Virus record (IMG/VR): IMGVR_UViG_2547132281_000009
Span: 1-28,155 of that record
Direction: 5' to 3' (one strand)
Length of the DNA stretch: 28,155 nt
Source of the DNA: a virus
Lineage: Duplodnaviria; Heunggongvirae; Uroviricota; Caudoviricetes
Shown: one piece after another, positions 1,312-27,147 of the stretch
Layout: each line of letters opens with the position of its first letter
Numbering within the stretch: position 1 is the stretch's first letter
The notes under the pieces: model-generated
Databases searched by the model: none
What the model was told of the DNA's origin: nothing
What the model saw: only the letters and a program-made list of their open reading frames with translations
Translations under genes and position numbers: made by a program

Positions 1312-1326
1312 TGGTGTCCCCTGCAG
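1312..1326. repeat. attL core: 15-bp copy of the 3' end of tRNA-Arg (tggtgtcccctgcag)
   Basis: Exact match to 27071-27085, which is the 3' terminus (CCA end) of the intact tRNA; sequence diverges from the tRNA immediately after. Confidence 0.75.
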
Positions 1327-1385
1327 ACATCTACTTGAGGTTGCAGGGGATTGATTGGAATGGTGTTTTTTAGATGTGAAAAATA

Positions 1386-1405
1386 TTTTACCCGCTATTT
1401 TACCC
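1386..1405. promoter_or_regulatory. Tandem TTTTACCC repeats (1386-1393 and 1398-1405), candidate integrase arm-type binding sites
   Basis: Direct repeat spaced 12 bp between attL core and the xis-like gene; the same motif ttttacccg recurs at about 26949-26957, just upstream of the integrase start. Confidence 0.3.
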
Positions 1406-1600
1406 ATTGGCGCGGCTTAAGAGCTTATTTTTGAATTCACAATGGTCACGATATAACCATCTTGCTCGCCCGTGGATAACTTTGGCTTTTGGCAGGTCGC
1501 CGGACTTAATCCGGTCGTAGATGAAGGTTTTACCGAAGCCAGTATCGGCCATGATGAATTTCAAATCAACCAGTGAATCAGGCTGTAGTTCGTGTTGCAT
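1400..1600 (-). CDS. AlpA/Xis-family excisionase-like DNA-binding protein (66 aa)
   Basis: ATG at 1600 with a GGAGA Shine-Dalgarno 8 nt upstream; translation LVDLKFIMADTGFGKTFIYDRIKSGDLPKAKVIHGRARWLYRD resembles the AlpA/phage excisionase HTH family; sits next to the att core. Confidence 0.55.
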   Translation of the reverse strand: MQHELQPDSLVDLKFIMADTGFGKTFIYDRIKSGDLPKAKVIHGRARWLYRDHCEFKNKLLSRANG

Positions 1601-1644
1601 GAGTGCTATCTCCGAATAGGGAATCGAACCTGCAAATCAGGCAA

Positions 1645-1665
1645 TAAAAAACCGCATTGATGCGG
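1645..1665 (-). terminator. Putative Rho-independent terminator (minus strand)
   Basis: 5-bp GC-rich stem ccgca/tgcgg with 4-nt loop followed on the minus strand by TTTTTT. Confidence 0.35.
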
Positions 1666-1722
1666 CGATGGTAGGTCTTGATATCTTGAGAAATGAACAG
1701 GCCTCATCGAGTGTGAGGCGGG

Positions 1723-2067
1723 TTAGTCCTTGCGTAGCTCGCTGATTCTTCTGTAAGTCTCTGGTGCTTTGTTCCCGTACGTCTTCATTTCAGACTTCAA
1801 CAGAGCAACGAGTGAATCCCATTCGTTGAGGATTCCTTTGAATGCCGGAACGCGCTTTGCAACCTTGTCGAATGAATCTCTGATTTCTGGAATCTGCTCA
1901 ACAAGTGCAACGCATCGCCGAAAGTCTGCTGCGTCATGGGGAGCGCCGAAGTGATGACCATAGATATTCTTTTTCAGGCCACATGCGATTGAGGCAAGAG
2001 TTGCGCTACTGATGCCGACATCGCCAGTTGATTGCCATTTCAAAACCTTCATAGCCAAATCTGACAT
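1723..2067 (-). CDS. Hypothetical early-left protein (114 aa)
   Basis: ATG with GGAGA Shine-Dalgarno; no recognisable motif. Confidence 0.5.
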   Translation of the reverse strand: MSDLAMKVLKWQSTGDVGISSATLASIACGLKKNIYGHHFGAPHDAADFRRCVALVEQIPEIRDSFDKVAKRVPAFKGILNEWDSLVALLKSEMKTYGNKAPETYRRISELRKD

Positions 2068-2155
2068 TTCTTGTCTCCATAAAACAAAACTCGCCGTAGC
2101 GAGCTCAGATAAAAGAAATCCCCGCGAGTGCGAGGATTGTTATGTAATATTTGGT

Positions 2156-2437
2156 TTAATCATCTATATGTTTTGTACAGAGAGGGCAAGTATCGTTTCC
2201 ACCGTACTCGTGATAATAATTTTGCACGGTATCAGTCATTTCTCGCACATTGCAGAATGGGGATTTGTCTTCATTAGACTTATAAACCTTCATGGAATAT
2301 TTGTATGCCGACTCTATATCTATACCTTCATCTACATAAACACCTTCGTGATGTCTGCATGGAGACAAGACACCGGATCTGCACAACATTGATAACGCCC
2401 AATCTTTTTGCTCAGACTCTAACTCATTGATACTCAT
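2156..2437 (-). CDS. Hypothetical Cys/His-rich protein (93 aa)
   Basis: ATG preceded by AAGGAG; contains C..C..HH and CPLC motifs suggesting metal binding. Confidence 0.5.
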   Translation of the reverse strand: MSINELESEQKDWALSMLCRSGVLSPCRHHEGVYVDEGIDIESAYKYSMKVYKSNEDKSPFCNVREMTDTVQNYYHEYGGNDTCPLCTKHIDD

Positions 2438-2628
2438 TTATAAACTCCTTGCAATGTATGTCGTTTCAGCTAAACGGTATCAGCAATGTTTATGTAAAGA
2501 AACAGTAAGATAATACTCAACCCGATGTTTGAGTACGGTCATCATCTGACACTACAGACTCTGGCATCGCTGTGAAGACGACGCGAAATTCAGCATTTTC
2601 ACAAGCGTTATCTTTTACAAAACCGATC

Positions 2629-3282
2629 TCACTCTCCTTTGATGCGAATGCCAGCGTCAGACATCATATGCAGATACTCACCTGCATCCTGAACCCATTG
2701 ACCTCCAACCCCGTAATAGCGATGCGTAATGATGTCGATAGTTACTAACGGGTCTTGTTCGATTAACTGCCGCAGAAACTCTTCCAGGTCACCAGTGCAG
2801 TGCTTGATAACAGGAGTCTTCCCAGGATGGCGAACAACAAGAAACTGGTTTCCGTCTTCACGGACTTCGTTGCTTTCCAGTTTAGCAATACGCTTACTCC
2901 CATCCGAGATAACACCTTCGTAATACTCACGCTGCTCGTTGAGTTTTGATTTTGCTGTTTCAAGCTCAACACGCAGTTTCCCTACTGTTAGCGCAATATC
3001 CTCGTTCTCCTGGTCGCGAGATTTGATGTATTGCTGGTTTCTTTCCCGTTCATCCAGCAGCGCCTGCACTACTTCAGGGTTGAAAGCTGCGATATAACGA
3101 GCGTTGTTCTCTGCGTTGTTCTGTCCATCAAAGCCGGTCCATTTGATAACGTCTTCACATCGTTTATCACCAGGTGTATGCACCGCATATGTACCAGTAC
3201 CAGACGAAATAAATGCGACCCATTCACCCTGTGTTGCCAGTTGCGCCGCTTCACGCAGTGCCTGATAGTCAATCTTGTTCAT
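2629..3282 (-). CDS. Ead/Ea22-like early protein (217 aa)
   Basis: Central coiled-coil region and C-terminal ITHRYYGVGGQWVQ-type motif typical of Ead/Ea22-family proteins of lambdoid early-left regions (from memory). Confidence 0.55.
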   Translation of the reverse strand: MNKIDYQALREAAQLATQGEWVAFISSGTGTYAVHTPGDKRCEDVIKWTGFDGQNNAENNARYIAAFNPEVVQALLDERERNQQYIKSRDQENEDIALTVGKLRVELETAKSKLNEQREYYEGVISDGSKRIAKLESNEVREDGNQFLVVRHPGKTPVIKHCTGDLEEFLRQLIEQDPLVTIDIITHRYYGVGGQWVQDAGEYLHMMSDAGIRIKGE

Positions 3283-25753: not shown

Positions 25754-26911
25754 TCACTCCACCTTTTCATCAAGCCAGTCCGCCCACCACTGCATCATTT
25801 CTCTGCGCTTATCGAGATACTGAGCATGGTTGTAAATACCGCGCACAGATCCGCCGTTGGCATGTGCCAGCTGCACTTCAATAGCGTCAGCAGGCCATTC
25901 GTGCTCGTTCATAATCGTGCTGAATTCATGCCTGAATCCGTGACCGCTTTCCAGACCTTCATAGCCGATTTGTTTGATCACAAGCAATACCGCGTTCTCG
26001 CAGATTGGCTTCTTCTTATCGTTGCGCCCGGCAAAAACAAACTCTGATACTGGTTTGGTGATTGAGCTTAGCGTAGTGAGAAGTTCAACCACCTGGTCTG
26101 ACATAGGAACAACATGAATCTTGCGGCCCTTCATCACACTGGCGTCGATGGTGATAATCCTGTTTTCAAAATCGACGTTCTTCCATTGCATGGAACGAAG
26201 CTCTTTCGTTCTTAGGGCTGTGTAGCGTAAAACTTTGGTCGCAATGAGCGATACGATGCTTCCTGAAAATGTTGCCAGTGCTTTGTTGAATGCAGGGATC
26301 TGGTCTGCTGGAAGAAACGGGAAGTTCTTCTTGCGGTATCCTTTCATGGCGTCTGCAAGGTCAGGTGCCGGGTTATATTTAGCCCTTCCGGTGACAATAG
26401 CGTAACGGAAAACCTCGCCGCATCTTCTGCGGGCTTTGTTGGCTCGCTCCATTGCACCGCGATCTTCAAATCTGCGGATTACTTCCAACAGTTGCATCGG
26501 CTCAATATCCTGAATTTCAAGGCTGCCGATGATGGGTAAAATGTCGTCATCAAACATTTTGGCAAGTTCAGTTGCATAGCCTACTGACCAGACTTGCTTC
26601 TTGTGCTCGTACCATTCCTTGTAAATCGCACTAAATGAATTGTTGTTAGACGAAGCCTTTTTCGCTTTTACCGGATCGATGCCAACCGAGATGTCTTTCC
26701 TCGCGGTCCATGCTTTATCTCTTGCCTCCTGCAAAGTCATAAGCGGATATTTTCCTACGGTCAGGATTTTCTCCTTACCGTCAATCTTGTAGCGAAGCTG
26801 CCATACCTTTTTCCCGGATACAGGGACATAAAGGTACAGGCCATTACCATCGAGAAGGCGGTATGGTTTTTCTTTCGGCTTTGCTGCTTCAATCTGCTTA
26901 ACGGTGAGCAT
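25754..26911 (-). CDS. Tyrosine integrase, P4 family (IntS-like)
   Basis: N-terminus MLTVKQIEAAKPKEKPYRLLDGNGLYLYV and C-terminal catalytic region (HGFRHEF...LAHANGGSVRGIYNHAQY) match CPS-53 IntS-type integrases; an upstream in-frame ATG at 26947 is an alternative start. Confidence 0.95.
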   Translation of the reverse strand: MLTVKQIEAAKPKEKPYRLLDGNGLYLYVPVSGKKVWQLRYKIDGKEKILTVGKYPLMTLQEARDKAWTARKDISVGIDPVKAKKASSNNNSFSAIYKEWYEHKKQVWSVGYATELAKMFDDDILPIIGSLEIQDIEPMQLLEVIRRFEDRGAMERANKARRRCGEVFRYAIVTGRAKYNPAPDLADAMKGYRKKNFPFLPADQIPAFNKALATFSGSIVSLIATKVLRYTALRTKELRSMQWKNVDFENRIITIDASVMKGRKIHVVPMSDQVVELLTTLSSITKPVSEFVFAGRNDKKKPICENAVLLVIKQIGYEGLESGHGFRHEFSTIMNEHEWPADAIEVQLAHANGGSVRGIYNHAQYLDKRREMMQWWADWLDEKVE

Positions 26912-27070
26912 GGGTAAAAATCCGGTGGGTAAAATTATTTTATCCACTTTTTACCCGTCATGGAGTGCGGCTGTCAACGATCTGACGCGAACCATGACGA
27001 ACCGTGAATATACGGAAGGATTGATATTCAGGGGATTTTGCGGACTGGTACGGATGGGAGCGAACTGATA

Positions 27071-27147
27071 AATGGTGTCCCCTGCAGGAATCGAACCTGC
27101 AATTAGCCCTTAGGAGGGGCTCGTTATATCCATTTAACTAAGAGGAC
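27071..27147 (-). tRNA. argW: tRNA-Arg (anticodon CCT), argW; its 3' end forms the attR core
   Basis: Minus-strand sequence GTCCTCT...CTCCTAA...GGTTCGATTCCTGCAGGGGACACCA with acceptor-stem pairing, CCT anticodon and encoded CCA; ends may be off by 1-2 nt. Confidence 0.9.

Follow-up and report, generated by a model that had tools for sequence, protein, structure and literature searches.

Why should a prophage keep, on the far side of its excisionase gene, a second piece of the tRNA gene at which it is integrated? The question is raised by IMG/VR virus record IMGVR_UViG_2547132281_000009, of which positions 1 to 28,155 were analyzed as a single stretch of 28,155 nucleotides (hereafter, the window). 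The window holds a prophage of about 25.8 kb that is bounded by two copies of an att core and integrated at argW, the gene for tRNA-Arg(CCT). The piece in question is a 16-nt copy of the T arm of that tRNA, located in the leader of torI, the gene for the recombination directionality factor (RDF, or excisionase, Xis). According to the first-pass annotation of this sequence, the copy could be left over from an older and longer attP homology, could be a scar that successive integrations produced, or could reflect a rearrangement. With moderate confidence, we favor another reading, in which this second T-arm (B-arm) copy would be a native, conserved cis-element that is maintained in the torI leader as a regulatory site. 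The features on which the argument depends are as follows.

1620-1635, minus strand: 16-nt exact copy of the argW T arm, TTGCAGGTTCGATTCC on the xis strand (exact match)
1619-1629, minus strand: conserved centre of the element, GTTCGATTCCC, beginning 29 nt upstream of the torI ATG and ending 5 nt before the Shine-Dalgarno (SD) sequence
1608-1613, minus strand: torI SD sequence GGAGAT, read from the sequence and conserved in the leader alignment
1400-1600, minus strand: torI, an open reading frame (ORF) for the RDF of 66 aa, MQHELQPDSLVDLKF...
1312-1326, minus strand: att core at the torI end, with a putative C' site GACACC at 1313-1318 and a putative 7-bp overlap TGCAGGG at 1319-1325
27073-27147, minus strand: tRNA-Arg(CCT), argW, the only tRNA found by ARAGORN; the core supplied by the phage makes up its last 15 nt (27073-27087)

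The sequence GGAATCGAACCTGCAA is present exactly twice in the window, both times on the plus strand, at 1620-1635 and at 27087-27102, and there is no further occurrence at up to 2 mismatches. The second occurrence is the T arm of tRNA-Arg(CCT): the 16-mer covers the T loop together with the 5' strand of its stem and the initial 2 nt of the 3' strand, and identity to the tRNA ends on either side of it. A chance match is ruled out by dinucleotide-preserving shuffles, in which the mean number of matches was 0.02 and 0 of 100 shuffles reached 2. The first-pass annotation was therefore right that the match is real, that it is not due to chance, and that it is homologous (16 of 16) to the T arm of the target tRNA of the element, although the tRNA coordinates that it gave (27085-27100) were off by 2 nt. 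Its statement that deleting 1327-1620 would rebuild a 30-nt tRNA 3' segment is literally true, since window positions 1312-1326 joined to 1621-1635 equal 27073-27102 at 30 of 30 bases. The gene that separates the two tRNA-like pieces is torI.

The first step in answering the question is to ask whether the arrangement belongs to this genome or to the phage group. The virion genomes of HK620 and Sf6 match window positions 1312-1666 at about 97%, with the element at the equivalent place. Furthermore, the element is present in 1,403 of the 5,426 complete Escherichia coli genomes, K-12-type KplE1 (loci L290 and L293) being among the carriers. A strain-specific scar or tandem integration is ruled out by the free phages and the 1,403 E. 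coli genomes with the same arrangement. Because HK620, Sf6 and these genomes share it, the element is, on this comparison, native to the argW-type IntS/TorI module and not a local scar. Comparison of related attP regions thus finds the arrangement as a conserved native feature, which is the outcome that the first-pass annotation had itself named as contrary to a scar or rearrangement of this genome; in addition, the 10-11-nt centre of the element recurs in many other genera. The element is not a junction fragment either, as it lies 293 bp from the core, inside the prophage and on the far side of xis, and is also found in the HK620 and Sf6 virion genomes. Phages HK022 and 434 and the Stx phages, which have other integration modules, match the window from 1638 only (1638-1800 in HK022 and 434), and by these matches the xis-attP-int module therefore has the element as its outermost part. 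In IMG/VR, 443 stretches encode TorI relatives, of which the best 80 share the leader with minor variants; when IMG/VR was scanned twice, with TorI or with its alignment, all loci that came back were identical and of the E. coli type.

For the analysis of more distant relatives, Xis homologues were collected by protein alone, one genome per species, and the 60 nt upstream of each start codon were examined. The sequence GTTCGATTCC (at most 1 mismatch) is present in 15 of the 32 species-level loci, starting at -28/-29 from the xis ATG (-35 in Serratia fonticola); the background is 12 matches in the remaining 184 kb of those loci. The carriers comprise Escherichia, Citrobacter, Serratia, two Pantoea, Edwardsiella, three Enterobacter, and Phytobacter, as well as the phages g341c and Emek (Xis about 50% identical to TorI), phiEt88 (36-39%), and Midgardsormr38, and a Hafnia chromosome (L445). 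Some carrier loci encode an Xis that is only 30-45% identical to TorI. For example, in a metagenomic prophage (L442) the element is perfect, Xis is 30% identical, and the flanks are unalignable, and in phiEt88 the element keeps 12 of 12 bases with flank identity at about chance. In the leader alignment, the centre GTTCGATTCC(C) is conserved to the level of the SD sequence and the ATG, whereas the 5-6 nt loop, the leftward bases, and much of the spacer vary freely. Tandem copies are found in Midgardsormr38 (about 2800-2835) and in L442 (1913-1940), 16 nt and 13 nt apart, respectively, from start to start, and the two duplications are independent.

Leaders without the element are unrelated sequences, and no decayed intermediates were seen among them. 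In Dryocola (L297) and Enterobacter sp. R1 (L313), the sequence terminator-TTATTGCC(T/C)G, about 30 nt upstream of xis, joins the SD sequence directly; compared with E. coli, both have a clean indel of about 25 nt by which precisely the T-arm element is lost. The argument for conservation is based on the flank contrast, the fixed position, and the lack of intermediates, and from it we conclude that the element is old and conserved and that it is probably a functional cis-element in the torI leader.

The Hafnia locus shows a separate peculiarity. At 1501-3134 of a 4.87-Mb contig, xis, attP and int are contiguous, that is, in the unintegrated (attP) configuration within a chromosome. This layout could be a tandem prophage junction or the result of integration via another site.

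The next step is to determine how the element is related to the tRNA. The element of the E. coli lineage matches the tRNA at 16 of 16 positions, and the consensus of all lineages, TTCCAGGTTCGATTCCC, at 15 of 17. The T-stem part fades by lineage (TTGCAG, TTCCAG, TTACAG, GTCAG, CTAG, CCAA, CCCT), while in Serratia and one Pantoea the match is lengthened 3' into CCTG (GATTCCTG); the lineages combined cover TTGCAGGTTCGATTCCTG of the tRNA. Descent from the T arm is the simplest reading of these alignments. Two further similarities were tried and rejected: a degenerate second core (acceptor stem) after the element, for which the consensus leader matches the tRNA at 8 of 22 positions by hand count, not a significant number, and a 7 of 10 match between GGAGATAGCA and GGGGACACCA, which was dropped as confounded by the SD sequence.

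To place the other piece, the P-side core flanks of all lineages were aligned to the tRNA with GCAGGGG as an anchor. In relatives, the attP flank beside the core is T-loop-like and in register with the tRNA (TTCGATgtaTGCAGGGGACACCA): many lineages have (G/A)TTCGATgt[a/c/t]TGCAGGGGACACCA, compared with GTTCGATtccTGCAGGGGACACCA in the tRNA, and TTCGAT is exactly in register in at least 8 lineages and at 5 of 6 positions in several others. The window alone shows only 4 of 15 matches beyond the core, because the E. coli lineage has GTAGAT (4 of 6) at this place. In Serratia, the leader copy and the attP T-loop segment coexist and overlap in tRNA coordinates, an outcome that cannot come from xis simply inserting into a single contiguous homology. 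Since the attP flank keeps an in-register T loop and the copies overlap, the leader element is, by this alignment, a second T-arm copy and not half of a split one. The attP-tRNA similarity of argW phages thus reaches, imperfectly, through the T loop, and this allows a crossover site to be assigned. Three further features of the torI end are the following.

1326-1336, minus strand: P-side core flank, AAGTAGATGTC on the xis strand, containing a putative core-type C site GATGTC and what is left, in degraded form, of an in-register T loop (GTAGAT; TTCGAT in relatives)
1384-1405, no strand assigned: pair of direct repeats, TATTTTACCC, overlapping the torI stop codon and presumed to serve IntS as arm-type sites in the P arm
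1342-1350 with 1317-1325, no strand assigned: perfect 9-bp inverted repeat, TCCCCTGCA and TGCAGGGGA, with 16 nt between the arms

The att core TGGTGTCCCCTGCAG, which is the tRNA 3' end, lies at 1312-1326 and 27073-27087 and is 15 nt long in the window. In the literature its length is 16-17 nt; the 16th base reported for K-12 (CTGCAGGGGACACCAT) differs here at the torI-side junction, with G for T on the xis strand (junctions 1311/1312 and 27072/27073). There is an inverted symmetry about a 7-bp segment, G[A/G]TGT[C/A] | TGCAGGG | GACACC, that is perfect in g341c and EhrS_49 (GGTGTC / GACACC) and co-varies with the differing host tRNA in Edwardsiella (GGCGTA / AACGCC) and Pantoea (GACGTC / GACGCC). 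From this symmetry and co-variation we infer a C-O-C' arrangement in which O is TGCAGGG. The 9-bp inverted repeat, which lies in the P arm, puts an inverted copy of this putative overlap segment beside the core; relatives retain the repeat, and a compensatory change in Rouxiella (L300) affects the two arms together (CCCCTACA / TGTAGGGG). The presumed arm-type sites agree with the report that IntS arm-type sites share TAAA (Panis 2010).

The attB arm to the left of O ends in ...GTTCGATTCC, and the leader element consists of those 10 nt; its identity to the tRNA stops at the putative B|O boundary. Given the C/O/C' assignment, the element has the sequence of an IntS core-type site and can be described as a B-arm mimic. 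An end at the B|O boundary fits either an origin at a secondary site by integrase catalysis or present recognition by the core-binding function of the integrase.

What, then, would maintain the element? On the torI strand, an upstream ORF (1723-2067) is followed by a hairpin (1719-1701) and a terminator-like hairpin (1666-1651) with a T run; after these come TTGCAGGTTCGATTCC (1635-1620), c-tattc, GGAGAT, 7 nt, and the torI ATG. The scan reports two terminators upstream of the element, and the nearer one is the following.

1641-1666, minus strand: intrinsic-terminator-like hairpin (1666-1651) and T run, directly upstream of the element (terminator scan)

The homology to HK620 and Sf6 stops at this hairpin, and the homology to HK022, 434 and the Stx phages starts there. 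A consensus scan of 1250-2100 found no sigma-70 consensus promoter and no -35/-10 pair. As for tRNA or structured RNA at the element, ARAGORN found only argW in the window and Rfam models gave nothing meaningful on 1250-1850 (best E = 1); by eye, there was no convincing match at the element to the IHF, Fis, LexA, or ARG-box consensus. A direct repeat, AACCAGTGAATCAGGC and AACCTGCAAATCAGGC at 1568-1583 and 1627-1642 (13 of 16), with one copy in torI codons 6-11 and the other overlapping the element, was judged to be near chance.

The reading that we favor has a historical part and a present-day part. In a distant ancestor, a rearrangement would have fused a T arm with the xis leader, the join falling at the boundary of integrase cleavage, and selection would now keep the element as a sequence-specific regulatory site for torI expression. 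A protein of the module would bind the element, with a specificity pinned by the invariant host tRNA. The binder may be IntS, by way of its core-binding domain, or alternatively TorI, by way of the GTTCG box, and the bound protein would lower either the read-through transcription or the translation of torI. Since the host tRNA does not vary, integrase core recognition with a fixed specificity would explain an invariance that is independent of RDF divergence, and it would also explain why the element stops at the putative B|O boundary. Among the module-encoded proteins only integrase core recognition must hold its specificity in all lineages; host factors also do so. We put forward this specific mechanism, an IntS or TorI site controlling torI (RDF) expression, only tentatively. 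Its narrowest form, in which an attB half-site mimic in the torI leader would let the integrase sense and throttle its own RDF ("target-site mimic as operator"), is more speculative still; if true, it would represent a logic for lysogeny stability. A companion historical reading regards the element as the fossil of an integrase-mediated secondary-site event that would have fused a T arm to xis and given this module family its unusual xis-attP-int order.

The alternative binder, TorI, has sites described as 8-mers ending in GTTC(G), GATC(G) or GTCC(G) (Panis 2010); they usually form phased arrays of 2-3. The element contains GCAGGTTC(G), which fits this form and is a candidate site, solitary in the window. 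In both TorI-type and g341c-type phages, the P' arm is full of GTTCG boxes.

Several observations weigh against a maintained regulatory site. The element is dispensable, since about half of the lineages do without it (RCIP0114, EhrS_49, Dryocola, Yersinia, and Morganella), and the set of lineages "with element" is partly defined by having it. Every homologue reached targets the same tRNA-Arg 3' end, which leaves no varying target with which the element might co-vary, and the Yersinia lineage with a variant core has no element. As a core-type site, the element resembles the weaker B arm (GATTCC) and not the C/C' consensus G[A/G]TGTC, and isolated core-type (B-type) integrase sites usually bind weakly. 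The TorI version in particular is weakened because phiEt88 keeps the element with P'-arm repeats that are not of the GTTCG type. Moreover, the five TorI sites reported are all in the P' arm, and none is at the tRNA T loop or in the torI leader (Panis 2010).

Among the rival explanations, the one that survives best, although we consider it doubtful, is control at the RNA level. Here the leader segment GGUU..AUUCCC would pair with the SD sequence and spacer, GGAGAU..AACC, and hide the ribosome-binding site, and in the E. coli lineage an extra UUGCA would pair with the start-codon region UGCAA. This hairpin is the minimum-free-energy fold in most lineages; 86.5% of the alignment cells pair, compared with 32-65% when the partner is slid, and pairing is retained or made better by the substitutions seen in the stem (through C16>U, a C.A becomes U-A, and U-A alternates with U.G). 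However, there is no real covariation, and the shuffle controls are not exceeded. The energies are -3 to -11 kcal/mol with z-scores of -2.6 to +0.7, and shuffling the 11-mer alone leaves the mean SD accessibility unchanged (mean percentile 0.42). In addition, the unpaired CG is as invariant as the paired bases, and the tandem copies are left unexplained. An SD hairpin is possible, yet it does not explain the conservation of the sequence. The leader is similar to known SD-sequestering leaders in that GGAGAU has a potential pairing partner in a pyrimidine-rich segment located 5 nt upstream of it, and it differs from them in that the pairing is weak, no better than with a shuffled segment, and the sequence itself is conserved.

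We regard it as unlikely that the element is a functionless fossil, that is, a T-arm fragment from an ancient att rearrangement that has been carried along beside xis. Such a fossil would account for the plainly tRNA-like sequence (16 of 16 in the window, 15 of 17 in the consensus), the gradual decay of the T-stem part among lineages, and the half of the lineages that are without it. It does not account for the retention of all 10-12 nt where the loop, spacer and upstream flank are saturated and Xis is 30-40% identical; nor does it account for the lack of decayed intermediates, the fixed distance to the ATG, or the independent duplications in two lineages. The relic of an older attP homology proposed in the first-pass annotation is thus possible as an origin, but the element does not show relic-like decay, being invariant amid neighbors that are saturated with changes.

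Very unlikely, in our judgment, is an ancient split of a contiguous 30-nt attP homology by an xis cassette of about 294 bp, or a strain scar of successive argW integrations. The two pieces do abut perfectly in tRNA coordinates, and the element is at the outer edge of the module, with the HK620/Sf6 homology ending just beyond it. However, the arrangement is found in free phages and across genera, and the idea of a single tRNA homology split by a 294-bp insertion fails because an in-register T-loop remnant adjoins the attP core in relatives, and the leader copy of Serratia/Pantoea reaches into CCTG, so that the two overlap. A contiguous T-loop plus core 25-mer was sought in IMG/VR, where 80 loci were examined of at least 120 stretches matched, and it was not found outside a tRNA-Arg gene in these 80 loci: at 74 the 5' part of tRNA-Arg is present in full length (at least 45 of 50 nt), and 6 are cut by a contig end inside the gene. 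Thus, an unsplit "long attP" (T loop plus core) was seen at none of the 80 loci.

A side observation from IMG/VR concerns three viral metagenome contigs (L327, L330, and L352), whose common first base lies within tRNA-Arg, 29 nt before the T loop (TAACGAGCCCC...). This start may mark another phage type with about 54 nt of argW in its attP, or an assembly break at a repeat.

The cII/C1 box of lambda and P22 is TTGC-N6-TTGC. A cII-activated, pI-type promoter is the least probable explanation: although the GenBank records of HK620 and Sf6 annotate a "promoter, phage integration" covering the element (AF335538, promoter 1664-1702 and cII site 1689-1701; AF547987, pI) and the box TTGCCTGATTTGC occurs in the window, this box is spaced as TTGC-N5-TTGC and not with the canonical N6, many E. 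coli prophages, those of the K-12 type included, have TTAC in place of the first TTGC, the second TTGC is absent in other genera, the consensus scan gave no -35/-10 pair, the annotation is older than the finding of HkaC/TorI as excisionase, and a promoter driving xis together with int would oppose integration. Our finding corrects the database annotation of a cII-dependent "integration" promoter.

The reading of the element as a maintained regulatory site matters because of what it would control. Control of excision is held to rest on RDF expression, and in this module family to hinge on the timing of TorI production, while PtorI is uncharacterised (Panis 2010). The control point of prophage stability that has been missing may be this element: it is short, lies right at the ribosome-binding site of torI, matches the T arm of the host tRNA exactly, and is near-invariant in genera from Escherichia to Erwinia, Edwardsiella and Serratia, which makes it a concrete candidate. 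Since RDF expression is held to be decisive and PtorI is uncharacterised, it is also a cheap and specific target for mutagenesis.

The closest known system is the KplE1/HK620/Sf6/CUS-3 module at argW (Panis et al. 2007, 2010, 2012), which has the same integrase (99%), RDF (100%), core, layout, TorI boxes in the P' arm, and arm sites. The published accounts of this module that we compared give five TorI sites and the arm and core sites, with no mention of a T-arm copy in the torI leader. IntS and TorI repress PintS in attL (Panis 2010), and the logic proposed here, in which a site for a recombination protein doubles as an operator, would be shared with that autoregulation. The difference is that the intS case is demonstrated and uses arm-type and TorI sites, whereas the candidate site in the torI leader would be core-type and B-arm-like.

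Integrating elements reportedly duplicate the 3' ends of tRNA genes, an observation said to go back to Reiter in 1989, with sublocation classes attributed to Williams in 2002. The element resembles such duplications in being a piece of the target tRNA, in the orientation of the core and within the att region. It differs in that it is not at a junction, restores no tRNA, contains no crossover segment, and lies 293 bp from the core beyond xis; furthermore, it is conserved past what att function requires. The pI/cII and sib retroregulation of lambda likewise involve int/xis control elements around attP. However, the order is xis-attP-int here and attP-int-xis in lambda, the cII box is neither canonical nor conserved here, and the element is on the xis side of attP, where its linkage is unchanged by integration.

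The rest of the recombination module agrees with this placement and includes the following features.

25754-26911, minus strand: intS, an ORF for the integrase of 385 aa, 380 of 385 identical to HK620 Int (99%)
26912-27072, minus strand: P' arm, which includes the region of the intS promoter together with five boxes of the form GTTCG/GTCCG/GATCG (marked on the sequence)

IntS contains the Pfam domains Arm-DNA-bind_3, Phage_int_M and Phage_integrase, which correspond to the arm-binding, central, and catalytic parts. The gene adjoins the tRNA and is transcribed away from it. TorI is 100% identical to HK620 HkaC, Sf6 gp18 and E. coli TorI; the RefSeq label in the matching genomes is "response regulator inhibitor TorI". 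The genes torI and intS are at opposite ends of the prophage, and the phage order in HK620 and Sf6 is xis-attP-int. By sequence comparison, the P'-arm boxes form two blocks that overlap PintS and match TorI sites I1-I5, whose boxes and spacing are described in Panis 2010. The module in the window is, by these identities, the known KplE1 (CPS-53)/HK620/Sf6 recombination module at argW. The prophage itself (about 26 kb) is probably defective, because it is shorter than HK620 and Sf6 (38-39 kb).

Outside the prophage, the right flank is yfdC-like, and the 400 nt to the left of the core are the sequence directly 3' of argW in prophage-free E. coli. Further left of this argW downstream flank is an ORF for a LacY-like permease at 1-870, cut by the start of the window. 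Finally, two annotated ORFs, HK620 hkaB (1324-1464) and Sf6 gene 17, span the attP core, and integration would disrupt both; in the window, the counterpart of the hkaB span is divided between 1312-1407 and the intS end.

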